64,000 nucleotides of DNA from positions 471 to 64,470 of the forward strand of contig DATEOT010000052.1 in the NCBI GenBank assembly GCA_035273795.1, written 5' to 3'. Below the pieces are notes generated by a model that did no database searches, was not told the DNA's origin, and saw nothing but the letters and a program-made list of their open reading frames with translations. Positions 3,976 to 62,255 of this stretch are shown piece by piece; the stretch's first letter is position 1; each line of letters begins with the position of its first letter. The translations under genes and the position numbers were made by a program. This DNA comes from Solirubrobacterales bacterium. Lineage in GTDB: Bacteria > Actinomycetota > Thermoleophilia > Solirubrobacterales > 70-9.

Positions 3976-3989
3976 GGGCAGCGTGGTCG

Positions 3990-4048
3990 AGCAGATCAAG
4001 GACGCAGGGAACGAAGCGTGCTCTGCACGTGAGCGACCGAGGACGCAG
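3990..4048. repeat. About 59-bp intergenic repeat, copy 1 (family also at 12793..12850, inverted)
   Basis: agcagatcaaggacgcagggaacgaagcgtgctctgcacgtgagcgaccgaggacgcag nearly matches the reverse complement of 12793..12850. It lies between hemA and hemC. Confidence 0.7.
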
Positions 4049-4050
4049 AG

Positions 4051-4935
4051 ATGCGAAGCGCCACGCTGCGCCTAGCGACCCGGGGCAGTGCGCTGGCGCT
4101 GACGCAGTCGCGCTGGGTCGCCGACCGTCTCGGCGGCGCAGAACTGGTGGAGGCGAGCTCGGACGGGGAGCCGGGCGACAAGTCGCGCTTCGTCCGCGGA
4201 GTCGAGCGGGCGCTGCTGGCCGGCGAGGCCGAGCTCGGCGTCCACTCGGCCAAGGACCTGCCGGGCGCGATGCCCGAGGGGCTGGAGATCGCCGCCGTGC
4301 CGGCGCGCGAGGACCCGCTCGACGTCTGGATCGGCGTCGGCGACTCGCTTGACGACGTTCCCGAGGGGGCGCGGGTCGGGACTGCAAGCCTGCGCCGCCG
4401 CGCCCAGCTGCTGGCGGCGCGCCCTGACCTGCGGGTGGAGGAGCTGCACGGCAACGTCGACACCCGCCTGCGCAAGCTGGAGGAGGGCGAACTGGACGCG
4501 ATCGTGCTCGCCGCCGCCGGCCTGCGCCGGCTCGGCCGCGAGGCGGAGATCGGGTTCGCGCTCCCGGTCGAGCAGATGGTGCCGGCGGCGGGCCAGGGCG
4601 CTCTGGCGCTGCAGGTACGATCGGATGACGGAGCGACGAGCAACGCCGTGACGGCGATCAACGACCTGCGGGCGATGCGCGAGCTGACCGCGGAGCGCAC
4701 CGTCGTCGCCCTGCTAGAAGCGACCTGCGCCAGCCCCCTCGGCGCCCACTCCCGCGTCGAGGGCGCCCGGATCGAGATCGACGCCTTCGTCGGCCTCCCC
4801 GACGGCAGCGAGTGGCTGCGCGACCGCATCGAAGGCGAGGCCGAGCAGCCGGCCCTGGCCGGGGCGGAACTCGTCCAGCGCCTGCTCGGCTCCGGCGCGC
4901 GCGAACTTCTCGATCGCGCCGAGGAGATGGGATGA
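4051..4935 (+). CDS. hemC: Hydroxymethylbilane synthase (porphobilinogen deaminase)
   Basis: LRLATRGSALALTQS N-terminus, HGNVDTRLRKL motif, and heme-biosynthesis context. Confidence 0.92.
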   Translation: MRSATLRLATRGSALALTQSRWVADRLGGAELVEASSDGEPGDKSRFVRGVERALLAGEAELGVHSAKDLPGAMPEGLEIAAVPAREDPLDVWIGVGDSLDDVPEGARVGTASLRRRAQLLAARPDLRVEELHGNVDTRLRKLEEGELDAIVLAAAGLRRLGREAEIGFALPVEQMVPAAGQGALALQVRSDDGATSNAVTAINDLRAMRELTAERTVVALLEATCASPLGAHSRVEGARIEIDAFVGLPDGSEWLRDRIEGEAEQPALAGAELVQRLLGSGARELLDRAEEMG

Positions 4936-12769: not shown

Positions 12770-12792
12770 GGCCCCAGGGCGCCGCGCAGTAC

Positions 12793-12850
12793 TGCGTCCT
12801 CGGTCGCTCGCGTGCAGAGCACGCCACGCTCCCTGCGTCCTTGTCCTGCT
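12793..12850. repeat. About 58-bp intergenic repeat, copy 2 (inverted relative to 3990..4048)
   Basis: The reverse complement reads agcaggacaaggacgcagggagcgtggcgtgctctgcacgcgagcgaccgaggacgcag, which differs from copy 1 by only a few substitutions. Confidence 0.7.
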
Positions 12851-12879
12851 TGGCCCTGGACCCTCAGTAGGGTGAGCGC

Positions 12880-30905: not shown

Positions 30906-31385
30906 GTGCGAGGCATTCGAATTCGGTGGGCGGGGGCGGCGAAGGCGGCGCTGGTCGTCGTCGGCGCGCTGGCTGGGCTGCAGGCGCTGCCCGGGCTCCT
31001 GAAGCCGCCTCAGCCGCCGCCGCTGGATGCGGACGTGGGATTGCCGCAGGTGGCTCCGGCCGTTCAGCCGTCTTCGACGCAGGCGCCTAGGGCGGCCGGT
31101 CCTGTCTCCGATCGGGGGCTCTCCCGATCGGGAGAGTCCTCCCGATCGTCGCCACCCGCCGCAGGAGCGCAGGTGATTGACGGCGAGGGACGGAGGGCCC
31201 CGATGAACCGACGAAAGAAGAAGCGCCTCCCTACGCCTGCCCCGCTTCCGAAGCCGCGGACGGAACCTGTGCCCGCACCGGCTCCGACTCCTCCGGCGCC
31301 GCCGGAACCCGTGGTGGCGCCTGCGCCGGCTCCGGCCCCTCCTGCTCCGGCCGGCGACGGTTCCGAAGAGTTCGCGCCGCGCTAG
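30906..31385 (+). CDS. Hypothetical Pro/Ala-rich membrane-anchored protein
   Basis: GTG start, one N-terminal hydrophobic helix, then low-complexity P/A-rich sequence. It contains a copy of the 64-bp repeat (31098..31161). Coding status is uncertain. Confidence 0.4.
   Translation: MRGIRIRWAGAAKAALVVVGALAGLQALPGLLKPPQPPPLDADVGLPQVAPAVQPSSTQAPRAAGPVSDRGLSRSGESSRSSPPAAGAQVIDGEGRRAPMNRRKKKRLPTPAPLPKPRTEPVPAPAPTPPAPPEPVVAPAPAPAPPAPAGDGSEEFAPR
31098..31161. repeat. About 64-bp palindrome-containing repeat, copy A (family also at 60677..60740)
   Basis: ggtcctgtctccgatcgggggctctcccgatcgggagagtcctcccgatcgtcgccacccgcc is near-identical to the reverse complement of 60677..60740. Its internal arms are gatcgggggctctccc / gggagagtcctcccgatc. 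Confidence 0.8.
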
Positions 31386-47373: not shown

Positions 47374-47503
47374 TGCTCTCTCCTGACGCTTCCCTTGCTG
47401 GTCCGGCGACTGTTTGTGAATACCCATGGTCCGCTACAGCGGAGGGTAACTACTGCTCCCGCACCGCTGAAGAACTTCAGCGGGCGAGAGCAGTAGCGGT
47501 CAA

Positions 47504-48286
47504 TTACTCCGCAGCCTCAGCGGGCATCACTGCCCAAGAGCCGAAGCTCGCGCCTTTGGTTTTGTCGAAGTACACGATCGCCCCGAACTGCTGAGGCAGG
47601 GGTACTTTGACTTCCGGTTCCCCATTGATCAGGTACAGGCAGAGGACGCCGGGAGTCGCTTTCGGTTCAAAGCCGCCTCCGGGACATTTCAGTTCCTCTT
47701 CCTCGGTGTGATCGGAGGGATCGAAGAAGACGACCTCCGCGGGCGCGGTTTCCAGCGGGAGCGGGAAGGAGATCGTGGTGACCGAGAATTCGCCAAGCGT
47801 GAAGCCCGATTCTGCTTGGTTTTCCCAGAGGCCGGTCGCGGTCCGACCCTCAGGAAGGAACTCTGGGTAGCTCCCCTCGCTGCCGCCGCTGCACGCAAAC
47901 CCCTCGCCGGTCCCATTGATGAATTTGGAGCCGCCCCCGGGGCAGTTGGTGTCGCCGGGGTCAAGCGGGATGATGGTTACATCTTCACCGTCGGTGCCGT
48001 TGGTTCCGTTGGTTCCGTCGGTGCCATCTTCGCCGTCTGCACCCGGCGCGCCATTTGCGCCGGCGGCTCCGGTGTCCCCCTTCGCCCCGGGGGGGCCGTT
48101 CTGGCCGGCCGGTCCCTGGGCGCCGTCCTTGCCGGCGAATTTCTTGGCGATTTTCTTGACTTCCTTCTTCTGCTTGCCGGTCAGGCCATTGGCGGCGTAT
48201 GCGCCACCGACCAAGGCGGCGACCAAGGCGACAACGGCCACGATCAGGCCAGCTTTGCCGAAGGGCTCGCGGATTCTATGAAACAT
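47504..48286 (-). CDS. Membrane-anchored collagen-like (Gly-X-Y repeat) protein with C-terminal globular domain
   Basis: N-terminal TM helix GLIVAVVALVAALVGGAYA, a Lys-rich spacer, and 17 uninterrupted GXY triplets (GKDGAQGPAGQNGPPGAKGDTGAAGANGAPGADGEDGTDGTNGTNGTDGED). A Cys-containing domain of about 155 aa follows. SD aaggagag. Confidence 0.85.
   Translation of the reverse strand: MFHRIREPFGKAGLIVAVVALVAALVGGAYAANGLTGKQKKEVKKIAKKFAGKDGAQGPAGQNGPPGAKGDTGAAGANGAPGADGEDGTDGTNGTNGTDGEDVTIIPLDPGDTNCPGGGSKFINGTGEGFACSGGSEGSYPEFLPEGRTATGLWENQAESGFTLGEFSVTTISFPLPLETAPAEVVFFDPSDHTEEEELKCPGGGFEPKATPGVLCLYLINGEPEVKVPLPQQFGAIVYFDKTKGASFGSWAVMPAEAAE
47981..48133 (-). repeat. Coding Gly-X-Y triplet repeat (17 units) within the collagen-like gene
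   Basis: Every third codon is GGN across 51 codons. Confidence 0.9.
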
Positions 48287-48669: not shown

Positions 48670-49245
48670 TCAAGGATGGAAGGAAAGGGTTCCTCCGCCT
48701 ACGCGTGTGACTGTGCTGTCCCCTGTGTAGGTCCCGTTGTTGCCGGCAGCGCCGCAGAGGCCGCCCGTCGATGTATAAGCGATGGTTTTCACGTGAGGTG
48801 TAACGCGCATATGGCCGTTAGCCTCGGTGATGAAGGTGACCGTGCCAACTGTCTGCGGATGGACGGTCTGCGAGCAGCCGGCCCCTGTCACGGTGATCAC
48901 AATGGATTTCTCGATGTGAACCAGCCCGTTAGCTGTAAAGTTGTAGAAAGCGGGCGTGATGTGCACGGTGGCGAAGCCGAAAGCCGTGCAGCCGCTGTAT
49001 TTGACTTCTACTGTCTGTTCTTCGGACGCGACGCTTTTGATTTCGCCCGTCGTAGCAGCGGCGGTGCATTTGACCTGGCCGCCGGAGGTCGTGAAGACCT
49101 GGACTCCTTCGGCACCAGCAACGACTGAACCGGTCAGCGAACCGGTCGCGCTGGCTGTGAACTGAGCTGCTGAGGCGTTGGCGGCGCCGATCGCGCAGAG
49201 CGCGAAAACGGCGACGAGCACGCCGAGCTTCTTCATGTTACGCAT
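48670..49245 (-). CDS. Small secreted protein, paralog 1 (191 aa)
   Basis: SD aaggagaaacgcaat-ATG, signal peptide MRNMKKLGVLVAVFALCAIGAANASA, and 4 conserved Cys. It is about 80% identical to the next gene. Confidence 0.78.
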   Translation of the reverse strand: MRNMKKLGVLVAVFALCAIGAANASAAQFTASATGSLTGSVVAGAEGVQVFTTSGGQVKCTAAATTGEIKSVASEEQTVEVKYSGCTAFGFATVHITPAFYNFTANGLVHIEKSIVITVTGAGCSQTVHPQTVGTVTFITEANGHMRVTPHVKTIAYTSTGGLCGAAGNNGTYTGDSTVTRVGGGTLSFHP

Positions 49246-49530
49246 ATTGCGTTTCTCCTTGATTGCTAGTCATGTCTGTCTTCCGGCCCGGCGTCCTTTC
49301 CCAACGGAGCCCGGGTAGAAGAGATCGAGTCACTCGGTGGCTCGATCCCGGCAAGCTTCCCTGATCACTCAGGACTTGTCAAGTACCTAGGGGGTCATTG
49401 ACCCGTTTCAAGCCACAGACCGGCTTGTTCCCGGGGCGGGACACTGGGTTAGATCTCCGGGGCAAATGCCTGCAGATGGGCAATGTGGAGTCCTCGGACT
49501 TCATGGGTGGGTCCCGCGGATCGATCCGGC

Positions 49531-49590: not shown

Positions 49591-50148
49591 TCAGTCGAAG
49601 GCGAGAGATCCTCCGCCGACCCTTTCAACTTCGTTGGTGCCGGTGTAGGTACCGTTGGCGCCGCCGGCGCCGCAGAGACCGCCGGTCGAGGTGTAGGTGA
49701 TCCCACTGACGTTCGGGGTCACTTTCACTTTGGTGCCGTTGGTAGCAAAGCTAACCGTGCCAACTGTCTGCGGAGCGACGCTCTGCGAGCAGCCGGCCCC
49801 TGTCACGGTGATCGTGATGGTTTTCTCGATGTGAACCTGTCCGCTAGCTGTAAAGTTGTAGAAAGCGGGCGTGATGTGCACGGTGGCGAAGCCGAAAGCC
49901 GTGCAGCTGCTGTATTTGACTTCTACTGTCTGTTCTTCGGACGCGACGCTTTTGATTTCGCCCGAGGTAGCAGCGGCGGTGCATTTGACCTGGCCGCCGT
50001 TGGTCGTGAAGACCTGGGTAGCCGTGGCTTTACCGGTCAGCGAACCGGTCGCGCTGGCTGTGAACTGAGCTGCTGAGGCGTTGGCGGCGCCGATCGCGCA
50101 GAGCGCGAAAACGGCGACGAGCACGCCGAGCTTCTTCATGCTACGCAT
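49591..50148 (-). CDS. Small secreted protein, paralog 2 (185 aa)
   Basis: It has the same SD, signal peptide and first 130 aa or so as paralog 1. The C-terminal third has diverged. Confidence 0.78.
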   Translation of the reverse strand: MRSMKKLGVLVAVFALCAIGAANASAAQFTASATGSLTGKATATQVFTTNGGQVKCTAAATSGEIKSVASEEQTVEVKYSSCTAFGFATVHITPAFYNFTASGQVHIEKTITITVTGAGCSQSVAPQTVGTVSFATNGTKVKVTPNVSGITYTSTGGLCGAGGANGTYTGTNEVERVGGGSLAFD

Positions 50149-50289
50149 ATTGCGTTTCTCCTTGATCGCTAGTCATTTGTCTCCAACCCGGCGCCCTTCC
50201 CGACAGGCGTCCGAGTCGGCGAGGTCGAGTCCCCTTTGGTCACTCGATCCGGCGCAAGCTTGTCATTTGGTCAGGAGAATACGTAGTAC

Positions 50290-60500: not shown

Positions 60501-60958
60501 GAGAGACAAACCAACCCCTCCGCATGCTCCTCCACCTGCTCCAACGTCGCCCACGGCTGCGTCTGACTACGCGTCGTGTTGTCCCGCGTATGCGAATGAG
60601 CGAGGGTCAGCAACCTGCACAAGTTCCGGTATCCGGTCTCGTCTTCGACCAGCAGAGTCAAGTGAGCGGTCCCTCCGGCGGGTGGCGACGATCGGGAGGA
60701 CTCTCCCGGCAGGGAGAGCCCCCGATCGGAGACAGGACCCGCCGGCCGGAGCTCCACCGTCAACTCCGTCCCGGTAATCGCCCGGATCCCGAACCCCCGG
60801 CAGGCATGGGCGAACTCCATCGACCCCCAGACCCCGTCGTGATCGGTGAGGGCGAAGGCGGGATACCCCTGCGCGGCCGCGGCCGCGGCCAGCTCCATCG
60901 GGGTCGAGGCGCCGTCGAGGAAGGAGAAGGCGGAGTGAGCGTGCAGCTCGACGTACAT
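57584..60958 (-). CDS. dnaE2: Error-prone DNA polymerase III alpha-like subunit DnaE2 (ImuC)
   Basis: PHP domain start YVELHAHSAFSFLDGAS, followed by the pol III alpha core. It lies in an operon with an ImuB-like gene behind a LexA box. It contains an in-frame copy of the 64-bp repeat. Confidence 0.85.
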   Translation of the reverse strand: MYVELHAHSAFSFLDGASTPMELAAAAAAQGYPAFALTDHDGVWGSMEFAHACRGFGIRAITGTELTVELRPAGPVSDRGLSLPGESSRSSPPAGGTAHLTLLVEDETGYRNLCRLLTLAHSHTRDNTTRSQTQPWATLEQVEEHAEGLVCLSGCAREGAAAGAFERGDTAGGERVARRLLAAFGRDRFRIELQRPYWRRDRARNRWLGLLAERLDVPCVATGNAHSHDRRRAPLQDALVAIGRCETLEESEPHRRGNSTSSLASPAAMAARFAEYPEAVAEAERLAERLRFDLTEQLGYRYPGSEDAGADAELARVCNHHLGERYAGSARLLEAQWRLEEELATIRKLGLSGFFLLHRDLLELAREVAAEVRGPESARNVLPPGRGRGSSVSSIVCYLTGLSHVDPVEADLFAGRFLNEETTTLPDIDLDFPRDIREVLIPRVHERWGADRSALVAAFPTYRPKGAVRDLGKALGLPPGEIDRVAKTVGFHERTAAEIERDLVASLGPERAKEPRWRVLLELADEIMGLPRHSSQHPGGMVISTRPLIDVCPVVPAAMKGRQTVQWDKDSCADAGFLKIDLLGLGMLSAVERCVEEIGRTRGERLDLSRIPLDDAETFESIRAAETTGVFQIESRAQMQMLPRTQPRDLDDLIVQVALVRPGPIQGGAIHPYIERRKLLREDPEYKVPYPHPSLEPVLEETLGTIVFQEQVIESAMALAGFSSSEAEGLRRAMSRKRSEEAIAEHHRRFLAGAAANGASEEVAEKVWNQIKGFAGYGFPKAHSAAFGLLSYQSAWLRIHYGPEFLCSLLNEQPMGFYPPDSLVHEAQRRGIRVAAPCANRSRVLCHVETPREEGDVRGGLVVRVGLGYVKGVKKEEMEALVAERERGGRYEGIAELASRAGVGLPSLERLAWAGALDGIPVGSEDDRRQALWQVGVTAAGRIAGADTQLALPMEPPAPPELEPLGEWGKLIADYRSTGMTVEKHPLKLLRPGLDPNLVRSSDLARLDHGARIEIAGMVTARQRPETANGVTFVLLEDERGSVNLVVPPAVYERHRPLVRTVPLLRARGRLERREGVVNVLVSDLAPLERDKPSKPRPRNGRELAIAELRAVTPVGHSFGRRGR
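60677..60740. repeat. About 64-bp palindrome-containing repeat, copy B (inside dnaE2)
   Basis: The reverse complement matches 31098..31161 except in the central loop. It is translated as GPVSDRGLSLPGESSRSSPPAGG inside the PHP domain region. Confidence 0.8.
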
Positions 60959-60978: not shown

Positions 60979-61224
60979 TCAGGCCCGCTGCCGGTACCAG
61001 CGCTGGCCGCGGGCGGTGCGGAACACCGTCAGCGCCCGGCCGTCGCCCAGCGCCAGCTCGAAGTAGTGGCGGCGCAGCGGCTTCGACGTCCACCAGCGGT
61101 CCTCGACCAGCCACTCCTCGCGCACGGTCTCGACCTGGTGTCCCTCGACCGTTGTCGGGGCGCCGCGGGGATCGGTCCGCACCGCCACCCGCTGGGGGGC
61201 ATAGAGGCGACGAAGGCCGGGCAT
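60979..61224 (-). CDS. Small conserved-looking protein (81 aa) between imuB-like and dnaE2
   Basis: MPGLRRLYAPQRVAVRTD...EWLVEDRWWTSKPLRRHYFELAL. Its ATG overlaps the imuB-like stop (TGATG). Only the last 81 codons of the track's 416-aa ORF are used. Confidence 0.55.
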   Translation of the reverse strand: MPGLRRLYAPQRVAVRTDPRGAPTTVEGHQVETVREEWLVEDRWWTSKPLRRHYFELALGDGRALTVFRTARGQRWYRQRA

Positions 61225-62255
61225 CAGAGCTCCGGGTAGGGGGTCAGCATCGCCCAGCGCTCGGGCACCCGCGAAGCAGCGTCGACGGGGAGGATCTTCA
61301 GCAGCGACTCCGAGCCTTGCGCGGCGCGTACCTCCCGCACCGCCGCCCCGAGCCGGCGCCGTCGCGGCTCGCTGCCACCGACAGAGAGCTCGAGCTGGTC
61401 GCTGGCAGCCGGTCCGAGACCCACAGCCCGCAGGCGCAGCGCCGTCGCCGGCCCCGGCAGCTCCTCGAGGCGCGGGACGAGGACGTTGCGCAGAGCTCGG
61501 GGCGAGGCGCTGGGGCGGCCCAATCCCTGCTCGACGCTCCAGCTGCCGCCGGTCGCGAGCATCGCCCCCATACGGAGGCCGAGCAGGGTCCTCCCCTTCC
61601 GCTGCGGTGCCGCCAGGAGGCGGTCGACGAGCAGCTCGAGGGCACGATCGAGCTGGCGCCCGGCAGTCCCCTCCGGCAACTCGATCTCCTCGGCCAGCTC
61701 CTCGTGCGGAGCGCGGGGGCGCAACGGTCCCTCCTCGCCGCGGCAGAGGCGCAGCGCCCGCTGCCCAAGAGGGCCGAAGCGGTCGGCGACCTGATCGGTG
61801 GAAAGGCGCTCGAGCGCCGGCAGGGTCTCGATTCCGAGGCGCTCGAGCGCCTCGATCAGCCCGCCGGCCTCGCGCTCGGGAACGCCCAGCCGCGTCCGCA
61901 GAGCGGCGGTCGGGGTCGGACGGGGCCAGTCGGCGGCCGCGAGGAAGGCGGCGAAGCGGGTGGGGCCGGTGCCGATCGCCCTCTCCTCTCCGACCGCTTG
62001 CCGCACCGCGGCGAGGACTCCGGCCGAGGAGCCCCCGTAGAGGCCGCGAAGCCCGTCGATAGCGAAGAAGGCCTCTCCCGGCCTCTCCGACTCCGGCGCG
62101 ATGCCAAGCGCCTCCAGCGCCCGCAGCATCGTCTCGGTCCTCTCCGCGGCTTGGACGGGGTCGTGAAGAGCGACGCGCCCGGACCGAAGCCCCCCAGCAC
62201 GGTCCGGGCGCGACGGAGCCGCCAGGCATTCATCGATGACACAGGCGATCTCCAT
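61224..62255 (-). CDS. imuB: ImuB-like Y-family-polymerase-related protein (short form)
   Basis: The segments FFAIDGLRGLYGG, GTGPTRFAAFLAA, and the HhH-like LPALERLSTDQVADRFGPLGQRALRL follow the ImuB/DinB fold order. It lacks catalytic acidic motifs. Its position upstream of dnaE2 supports the call. Confidence 0.68.
   Translation of the reverse strand: MEIACVIDECLAAPSRPDRAGGLRSGRVALHDPVQAAERTETMLRALEALGIAPESERPGEAFFAIDGLRGLYGGSSAGVLAAVRQAVGEERAIGTGPTRFAAFLAAADWPRPTPTAALRTRLGVPEREAGGLIEALERLGIETLPALERLSTDQVADRFGPLGQRALRLCRGEEGPLRPRAPHEELAEEIELPEGTAGRQLDRALELLVDRLLAAPQRKGRTLLGLRMGAMLATGGSWSVEQGLGRPSASPRALRNVLVPRLEELPGPATALRLRAVGLGPAASDQLELSVGGSEPRRRRLGAAVREVRAAQGSESLLKILPVDAASRVPERWAMLTPYPEL

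Follow-up and report, generated by a model that had tools for sequence, protein, structure and literature searches.

We analyzed a 64,000-nucleotide stretch of DNA from a Solirubrobacterales bacterium (contig DATEOT010000052.1, positions 471 to 64,470), here called the window, in which one palindromic repeat occurs twice: once inside dnaE2, the gene for an error-prone DNA polymerase III alpha, and once inside a small open reading frame (ORF) beginning at position 30906. The two copies probably belong to a non-autonomous, hairpin-forming dispersed repeat family of the Solirubrobacterales, similar to repetitive extragenic palindromic (REP) sequences and Rickettsia palindromic elements (RPEs) and comparable in behavior to miniature inverted-repeat transposable elements, known as MITEs. 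Whether a site is filled, and by which subfamily, changes more quickly than the sequence of the flanking gene diverges. The original prediction had proposed a mobile miniature element family, and this is supported by a census that placed about 44 sites between genes, in coding sequence in the sense orientation or in coding sequence in antisense.

The repeat pair and its family

The sequences at 31098-31161 (+) and 60677-60740 (-) are identical save for 3 nt of the 4-nt apical loop (GATC in ORF 30906, TGCC in dnaE2). They form the longest inverted repeat listed for the window. When each half-sequence was searched against the 64 kb, even at 3 mismatches, these two places were the only matches, and the number expected by chance was 0 (100 shuffles). 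A covariance model run with its filters off likewise returned them as the sole family members. Both copies form long, imperfect hairpins whose folding energies (-50.5 and -59 kcal/mol for 91-nt stretches) are better than those of all 200 shuffles, and both are read in the same orientation and frame of their host ORFs, giving GPVSDRGLSRSGESSRSSPPAAG in ORF 30906 and GPVSDRGLSLPGESSRSSPPAGG in DnaE2. The pair had been predicted as a 64-bp near-identical palindrome with differences in its central loop and one shared reading frame. All of this was borne out by the sequence comparison and the translations except the extent: each unit is really 72 nt long, including a covarying outer stem (Table 1). 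The covariance model matched the dnaE2 unit at 60670-60750 with 103.9 bits and the ORF 30906 unit at 31087-31167 with 97.2 bits; in the latter one foot pair is broken, and a G to C change in the conserved foot lies at 31097, one base outside the 64-bp start. A flank profile of 53 copies read GGnGCTCCG/unit/AGGAGC.

It could be supposed that the pair reflects chance similarity or an assembly artefact, as several contigs end within the element, a place where assemblers evidently struggle. We consider this scarcely credible, since chance matches were expected at zero, an independent ENA contig carries the identical dnaE2 copy, and hundreds of copies lie in conserved gene contexts in independent assemblies, including the long-read complete chromosomes OY969925.1 and OY969703.1. 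The contigs that stop inside the element are those of L018, L024, L066, L100, L104 and L105 (L-numbers are the labels of the compared loci, for example L001 or L110). In the protein database, many homologs of DnaE2 are incomplete. Short-read assembly seems to be interrupted by the repeat.

Our census used an exact 25-base central pattern with the loop left free, in one genome per species (GTDB representatives). It returned 108 stretches from about 31 species-level metagenome-assembled genomes (MAGs), with at most 14 matches in one MAG and fewer in most. All hosts were Solirubrobacterales or unclassified Actinomycetota MAGs. Grouping by flank similarity left about 44 independent sites, and covariance model R1 gave 124 matches in 725 kb of loci. 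In 109 copies of this form, type A, the bases outside the search pattern were nearly invariant, and variation fell mainly in the loop (TACC in 79, TATC in 9, TGCC in 7, TAGC in 5, others in the remainder) and the outer stem. Type A was not found in IMG/VR; viral carriage was rejected, the one foot-pattern match in that database being without a hairpin.

Further subfamilies, A', B, C, D, E, F, G and H, were recovered from the same loci with nhmmer, pattern searches and the covariance model. Their apical hairpins differ, and common to all of them is a foot, GC-GGGTCC(T/C)GTC...GCCACCC-GC. It consists of a GGGT/ACCC helix together with unpaired bases 5' (CC-TGTC) and 3' (G-CC(A)); above this foot rises the long apical hairpin; the unit termini are short and inverted (CCGGCGGGT...ACCCGCCGG). 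Core lengths are 61, 63, 69, 70 and 82 nt among the subfamilies, with compensating differences in the arms. The stems are 17-30 bp long and begin with C-G followed by two mismatches. The loop has 4 nt in subfamilies A to D, and the apices of E, F and G are larger or branched.

Covariation supports the hairpin. When 19 diverse 81-nt copies were aligned without gaps, 10 of the 29 pairs changed on both sides (34 cells), a level reached in 0 of 500 shuffles and far above that of slid controls. T17, G18, T19 and C20 were invariant in this alignment (the motif is CGTC in subfamily F), and the final C can pair with G65. GCCACCC was also invariant, but in the foot helix its A is the partner of T14 (UA in 18 of the 19 sequences). 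A permissive Rfam search of the element region gave chance-level matches alone (E >3, far under the gathering scores), and tRNA was the single match when the whole window was searched at gathering thresholds.

The core is far better conserved than its surroundings. Across 21 ortholog groups the flanks were on average 77% identical, as against 98.4% for the 33 core bases outside the search pattern; among the DnaE2 copies the core was identical and the flanks 82-90% identical. The outer stems of orthologous type-A copies differ by paired synonymous changes (CCG...GCC vs CCC...GCG). The contrast between core and flank is compatible with selection acting on the element, with fast replacement of its copies or with conversion among them.

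Some copies depart from the standard form. Variant or decayed copies exist, such as those giving peptides P0030 and P0053 and Pro-rich remnants in several loops. At L016:1299-1400 a type-A copy is followed directly by a second, partial 3' end (CACCCGCCGGAGGAGC), which suggests a truncated neighboring copy or a duplicated end. The motif GGGAC, often as TAGGGAC or TGAGGGAC, was enriched in two places, namely 21-40 nt upstream (at 13 of 40 independent sites) and immediately downstream (at 6 of 40). Examples are L002, L021, L041, L049 and L109, and, in the window, 60770-60766 and 60673-60669. It may mark a longer form of the element or a target preference.

States of the DnaE2 loop

The element in DnaE2 makes up residues 73-96, a loop between the PHP-domain strands at 59-69 and 97-104. 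Residues 1-273 were modeled with AlphaFold from an alignment of 46 sequences. The model was confident as a whole, with a mean predicted local distance difference test score (pLDDT) of 82 and a predicted template modeling score of 0.82, but residues 77-94 fell below a pLDDT of 50 and were without secondary structure. The insert, about 24 hydrophilic residues rich in Gly, Pro and Ser, is thus predicted by the model to be a disordered loop between two PHP strands. In an alignment with M. tuberculosis DnaE1 (PDB 5lew) that protein has a naturally long loop at the same position. Model and alignment together confirm the earlier placement of the insert in a variable loop of the PHP domain.

Between G-x-E-L and H-L-T-L-L the ancestral loop measures 5-9 residues (TLDDGS or TVREGERDL, for instance). 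A scan of metagenomes contributed 80 further loci, and 75 DnaE2 orthologs could be scored. The loop was empty in 33 of them and held a deletion scar in one. Type A was present in 5, type E in 5, a B/E2-like form whose 5' end is in another frame in 5, type C in 2 and type H in 3. An unrelated hairpin family (TTGATGGGCCGAAAA...TTTTCGGCCCATCAA) occupied the loop in 8 orthologs, an "ADGTK" type in 3 and other inserts in 10, giving at least 8 insert types in all. Orthologs with and without the insert, a comparison that the original prediction had called for, were therefore both found; it had also allowed for a homologous peptide in DnaE2 of unrelated lineages, and no such peptide occurs there. The unrelated family is read VDGPK...FSAHQ (L115:201-1190, L116:201-1025, L126, L156, L160, L173, L184, L191), and the inserts of L123, L125 and L135 are read LPADGTK...RR.

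The filled and empty alleles define the unit. Subfamilies E, C and H share one identical DnaE2 junction, ...GG/GCCGGCGGGTCC...CCACCCnCCGG/CAG... (slashes mark the boundaries), and the empty alleles L137, L121, L129 and L139 read ...GG/CAG.... Because filled and empty alleles can be compared in this way, we define the unit as GCCGGC + core + GCCGG, 72 nt long in type A and 84 nt in the E copy of L111. The ambiguity at the junction is limited to GG, and nothing beyond it is duplicated. We had also entertained an outer stem derived from a palindromic target and rejected it: the clean empty alleles L137 and L121 have no outer stem, and the stem is accordingly part of the unit. L145 (301-1056; loop TVRCWPAGGTA) is a secondary deletion scar in which the outer stem alone remains, as it equals a type-A filled allele minus exactly the 63 nt between two copies of a palindromic octamer, CCCGCGGG.

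Alleles with and without an insert are mixed among closely related sequences. The type-A allele L095, for instance, has an empty one, L110, as its nearest relative (90%), and only 76 of 264 pairs with 85-90% identical flanks shared the same loop state. Turnover of the same kind was seen in Wzy_C orthologs (75-84% identical), where two loops are empty or hold a sense A, an antisense A or an antisense B copy.

Another explanation for these observations is that gene conversion or template switching between copies, with the conserved feet as homology, exchanges the interior hairpin wherever a site is already filled. Identical junctions and uniformity across species would then be concerted evolution and not repeated transposition. 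E, C and H do lie at exactly one DnaE2 junction, the outer stems of orthologous type-A copies differ by paired synonymous changes, the consensus 5' extension GGAGCTCCG is present in the window allele only, and cores are 98% identical where flanks are 77%. The homology arms, however, are merely about 12-17 nt, and the Wzy_C copies in opposite orientation need inverted pairing over about 9 nt. The clean empty alleles and the roughly 44 separate sites still need a primary insertion process, and a direct demonstration of a conversion tract is absent. We regard conversion as a possible, if doubtful, account of the data.

A related idea goes further. The foot could be a fixed docking site at which an enzyme or short-homology conversion swaps hairpin cassettes, so that the same protein loop is rewritten repeatedly. 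The basis for this is the range of at least 8 states among 75 DnaE2 orthologs and the sense, antisense and empty states in Wzy_C. We give this idea little credence; if it is true, the family would be a system that diversifies protein loops or 3' ends and is kept uniform across the order by selection, and not merely decaying selfish DNA.

Placement between and within genes

Genes were called with a codon-position GC caller suited to high-GC DNA and checked with Pfam. Sorted by coding or intergenic position, orientation and frame, as the original prediction had recommended, the family proved to be multi-copy and dispersed, with about half of the 44 or so sites between genes and about 21 within coding sequence. 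In about 15 site groups a same-strand gene ends no more than 60 nt upstream of the element, mostly 7-38 nt ahead of the core. Where convergent genes share a spacer, it is common for each to have a sense-oriented hairpin of its own, the two belonging to different subfamilies; the inverted pairs were A+F, A+G, A+C and A+E. The F and G forms, with cores of 63 and 69 nt, were found between genes alone (5 of 5). The possibility that the element supplies a stop codon at a fixed offset was rejected, the distance from stop to element being 7-38 nt.

This placement raises the question of a function for the host. The element could be a structured nucleic acid selected by the host, either an RNA hairpin of 3' ends (a terminator without a U-tract or a stabilizer of mRNA) or a protein-binding site in DNA or RNA, with the coding copies as tolerated by-products. 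Such a role is compatible with past mobility. It agrees with the mostly sense-oriented intergenic copies 7-38 nt past stops and the convergent genes that each have their own sense hairpin, with very stable folds, with invariant unpaired foot bases next to compensating stems, and with a core far more conserved than its flanks; the same placement is described for REPs by Di Nocera, De Gregorio and Rocco in 2013 (PMC3733652), who propose action at the RNA level. Against it stand the roughly 21 sites within genes, in both orientations, where a terminator or binding site has no evident use. The right flank AGGAGC is without the T-run of an intrinsic terminator, and no Rfam family matched. Rapid changes in occupancy and common empty alleles are also unexpected for a required element. 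We therefore consider a host-selected function unlikely.

Within genes, 10-11 of the coding sites are in sense and 10-11 in antisense. Copies of either orientation sit in loops or linkers that tolerate them, in genes unrelated to one another. The host genes encode DnaE2 (whose PHP domain is split), Maf, NuoC (whose domain is split into two stretches), the Lhr helicase, DnaX (in its linker), PyrK-PyrD, RibD, a radical-SAM protein, a GT2 glycosyltransferase, four Wzy_C proteins and an ABC ATPase. Pfam domains flank the element or are split by it in DnaE2, Maf, NuoC, Lhr, DnaX, PyrK-PyrD, RibD, GT2, Wzy_C and the ABC ATPase. The DnaX gene (L012:4854-6755) and the Lhr gene (L027:1218-5882) hold two elements each, one of subfamily E in sense (AAGPVTAGDPPPPAKQEGVPPTVPPAA) and one of type A in antisense. 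Replication and repair genes (DnaE2, DnaX and Lhr) account for 3 of about 20 hosts, which echoes the enrichment of intragenic REPs reported in PMC3733652.

Sense copies are always read (P)AGPVSDRGLSLPGESSRSSPPAG and antisense copies PAGGDDREDSPGRESPRSETGPAG; L039, read RRMATIGRTLPAGRAPDRRQDPPAG, is the single exception in frame. One frame per orientation is thus used at 20 of 21 coding sites. Stop codons were rejected as the cause of this bias, as five of the six frames are stop-free. The frames that are used are the least basic, with net charges of 0 and -2 compared to +1 to +5 in the others, and peptide charge may explain the bias in part. Units within genes measure 72, 84 or 96 nt, all multiples of three, and the host frame is kept. 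It had been predicted that only in-frame, stop-free insertions would survive in coding DNA. The part that concerns length agrees with these unit sizes and with the F and G forms being seen between genes alone; the absence of stops is not the main filter, five of six frames being open.

The alternative that had been offered alongside mobility was a transferable peptide cassette, that is, a module selected at the protein level in DnaE2 and in a small membrane protein. The identical peptide in two unrelated proteins of the window and the single frame of all sense copies are what one would expect of such a module. It is contradicted by the DNA itself, which at about 11 sites is read antisense as PAGGDDREDSPGRESPRSETGPAG and at one site in a third frame, lies outside genes at about half of its sites, and is replaced at the same DnaE2 position by other subfamilies that give unrelated peptides. 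The insert is missing from 33 of 75 DnaE2 orthologs, and the model predicts the peptide to be disordered. A protein-level module is very improbable.

Mobilization, known systems and other features of the window

If the family is mobile, as we think probable, the foot would be the recognition site of a mobilizing enzyme and the element would be handled as a folded single strand. Our best guess for the enzyme is an HUH/Y1 transposase of the IS200/IS605-RAYT type (RAYTs are REP-associated tyrosine transposases), because target-site duplications are missing, junctions are clean, empty alleles are precise, and the TGTC/CGTC tag and CCA tail resemble those of CGTC-type REPs. Near-identity across species would come from selection on the ability to move together with rapid turnover or gene conversion, and a host function would not be required. 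Coding copies would survive only in tolerant or disordered loops and in non-basic frames.

Target-site duplications, for which the original prediction had advised a search, were not found around the copies: the longest word shared by the two flanks averaged 5.15 within copies and likewise 5.15 between copies. In the genome pieces examined, of about 8 kb, we saw no RAYT gene with copies on its flanks.

Several observations weigh against mobility. A tblastn search of 0.9 Mb with IS200 and IS608 TnpA sequences, a weak test, found no transposase, and a search of about 0.9 Mb of loci for a longer element with the feet at its ends, again a weak test, was negative. The requirement for an exact center favors intact copies, so that decayed ones are under-sampled. 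Flanks of the closest filled and empty pairs are about 90-93% identical, and insertion polymorphism within a population was not shown. Several subfamilies at one junction could mean gene conversion and not repeated transposition. The mechanism leaves the use of one frame per orientation unexplained although most frames are open, the mirror arrangement with the element on the opposite strand occurs only about 4 times between genes compared to about 15 in sense, which hints at a role in RNA, and the conserved core and invariant unpaired foot bases also fit a host-selected function.

We compared the family with elements already described. RPEs are inserted in frame in many genes (PMC10969869). 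Like them, the present elements are dispersed palindromes that lie between genes and in frame in unrelated functional genes (PMC10969869, PMC3733652), several families coexist, and a short peptide is added at tolerated positions; the in-frame repeat is found at about 21 coding sites with Pfam domains on both sides and a supported hairpin. The host is different, a free-living high-GC soil Actinomycetota as opposed to an obligate intracellular alphaproteobacterium, and the unit is 72-96 nt as opposed to about 100-150 bp. An invariant foot with an exchangeable hairpin, and the use of both orientations with one frame each, also set the family apart.

REP super-families are tagged GTAG or CGTC (variants TGTC and CCTC) and end in a CCA tail, and the CGTC-tagged ones include RPE-4 and RPE-6 (PMC3733652). 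Most REPs lie just downstream of ORFs, and intragenic REPs are known in dnaE2 and dnaE of other phyla; in dnaE2 they are inserted at residues 166-246 and 934-971, elsewhere in the protein than here. The word "Actinobacteria" does not occur in the main text of PMC3733652. With the CGTC-tagged REPs our family shares an unpaired TGTC (CGTC in F) directly 5' of the hairpin. The likeness is partial for the 3' tail, which contains CCA (G-CCA-CCC) but has its A paired in the foot helix, and for the loop, which is 4-5 nt in CGTC REPs and here has 4 nt in subfamilies A to D but a larger or branched apex in E, F and G. It also shares a location mainly downstream of ORFs, between convergent or co-directional genes and with inverted pairs, and the presence of copies within genes, notably those for replication and repair such as dnaE2, with no associated transposase seen. 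On the other hand, its stems have 17-30 bp and not 8-9 bp, the A/T pairs that CGTC REPs have at the first two stem positions are missing, the A of the CCA tail is drawn into an additional clamp helix (GCNNGCGGGT/ACCCGCNNGC), and type-A copy number per genome is modest, with no more than 14 exact-center matches in one MAG. The family behaves like RPEs or CGTC-REPs, and by analogy its membership of the CGTC-REP super-family is plausible.

The resemblance to GTAG REPs and the REPIN-RAYT system lies in hairpins with compensating stems, the lack of target-site duplications, a location at 3' gene ends and inverted doublets; mobilization of a single-stranded hairpin is also the mechanism that we propose. 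There is no GTAG at either end of the unit, however, and the elements here are longer than typical REPs. MITEs such as Correia/NEMIS, ERIC and RUP are likewise small and non-autonomous with inverted termini, and some bacterial MITEs cause in-frame fusions or altered transcripts (PMC10969869). Our family differs from them in that target-site duplications are absent and the whole element is one hairpin where a MITE has terminal inverted repeats around an unrelated interior; a weak search of about 0.9 Mb also turned up no parent insertion sequence sharing its termini. The family is not a GTAG REP, a classical MITE, a canonical terminator or an Rfam family. A literature search found no paper on repeats in Solirubrobacter, Solirubrobacterales or Thermoleophilia, and we describe it as a new family of an already known kind of element.

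Table 1. Host genes and element features in the 64-kb window
Feature	Position	Strand	Description
dnaE2, error-prone DNA polymerase III alpha, 1124 aa	57584..60958	-	Pfam PHP, DNA_pol3_alpha, finger, HHH_6, OB
Type-A palindromic unit in dnaE2	60675..60746	-	72 nt: GCCGGC + 61-nt core + GCCGG; read (P)AGPVSDRGLSLPGESSRSSPPAG
61-nt core of the dnaE2 copy, GGGTCCTGTC...GCCACCC	60680..60740	-	Foot and apical hairpin; loop TGCC at 60711-60708
Consensus-like 5' extension, GGAGCTCCG	60747..60755	-	Loose pairing with AGG... after the unit
ORF 30906, small conserved gene, 159 aa	30906..31385	+	N-terminal hydrophobic segment, Pro-rich linker, C-terminus GDGSEEFAPR
Second type-A unit, in ORF 30906	31091..31162	+	72 nt; outer stem GGCGGC/GCCGC; loop GATC at 31126-31129

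ORF 30906 had no match in a Pfam search. We consider it a real gene because it is open in 5 species with conserved termini and in-frame indels. The second copy is placed in its variable linker, and orthologous copies occur in L035, L068, L080 and L108. Directly upstream of dnaE2 (window 60979-62229 (-); L001:8346-9496) lie two genes, called in L001 as 301 aa and 81 aa; the shorter is also found upstream in L110-L113 and L116. Neither product had a Pfam match, and no recognizable imuB/imuA partner was seen beside this dnaE2.

The window holds other repeats. A putative third copy at 47431-47520 was rejected, as its covariance-model match reached 19 bits (E 0.12) and its hairpin is unrelated; the sequence there (CTACTGCTCTCGCCCGCTGAAGTTCTTCAGCGGTGCGGGAGCAGTAG, minus strand) is a strong intergenic hairpin outside the family with a terminator-like look. 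A second, unrelated palindromic repeat lies at 3985-4062 (+) and 12778-12855 (-), both intergenic. Its interior, CAAGGACGCAGGGA.CG..GCGTGCTCTGCACG.GAGCGACCGAGGACGCAG, has two AGGACGCAG boxes around a small hairpin; the outer stems differ between the copies and are complementary in each, with folds of -55.6 and -65.6 kcal/mol. This repeat had no Rfam match and was not found in the 114 loci searched. A tandem duplication of about 450 nt is present at 48833-49280 and 49748-50183 (94-97% identical, spacing about 910 nt).

In practice the family seems to break metagenome assemblies, makes proteins longer by about 24-32 residues, and can lead the calling of genes and the alignment of orthologs astray in this lineage. 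Palindromic repeats in frame within genes are usually seen as peculiar to Rickettsia and a few proteobacteria, and the same behavior is now found in abundant, uncultured, high-GC soil Actinomycetota. One protein loop offers a clean natural series: empty, filled by different subfamilies, filled in either orientation, and scarred. The allelic series sets the unit boundaries to within 2 nt, excludes a target-site duplication, and separates an invariant, putative recognition foot from a freely covarying hairpin. It thereby narrows the mechanisms by which REP-like elements whose transposase is still to be found could be mobilized.

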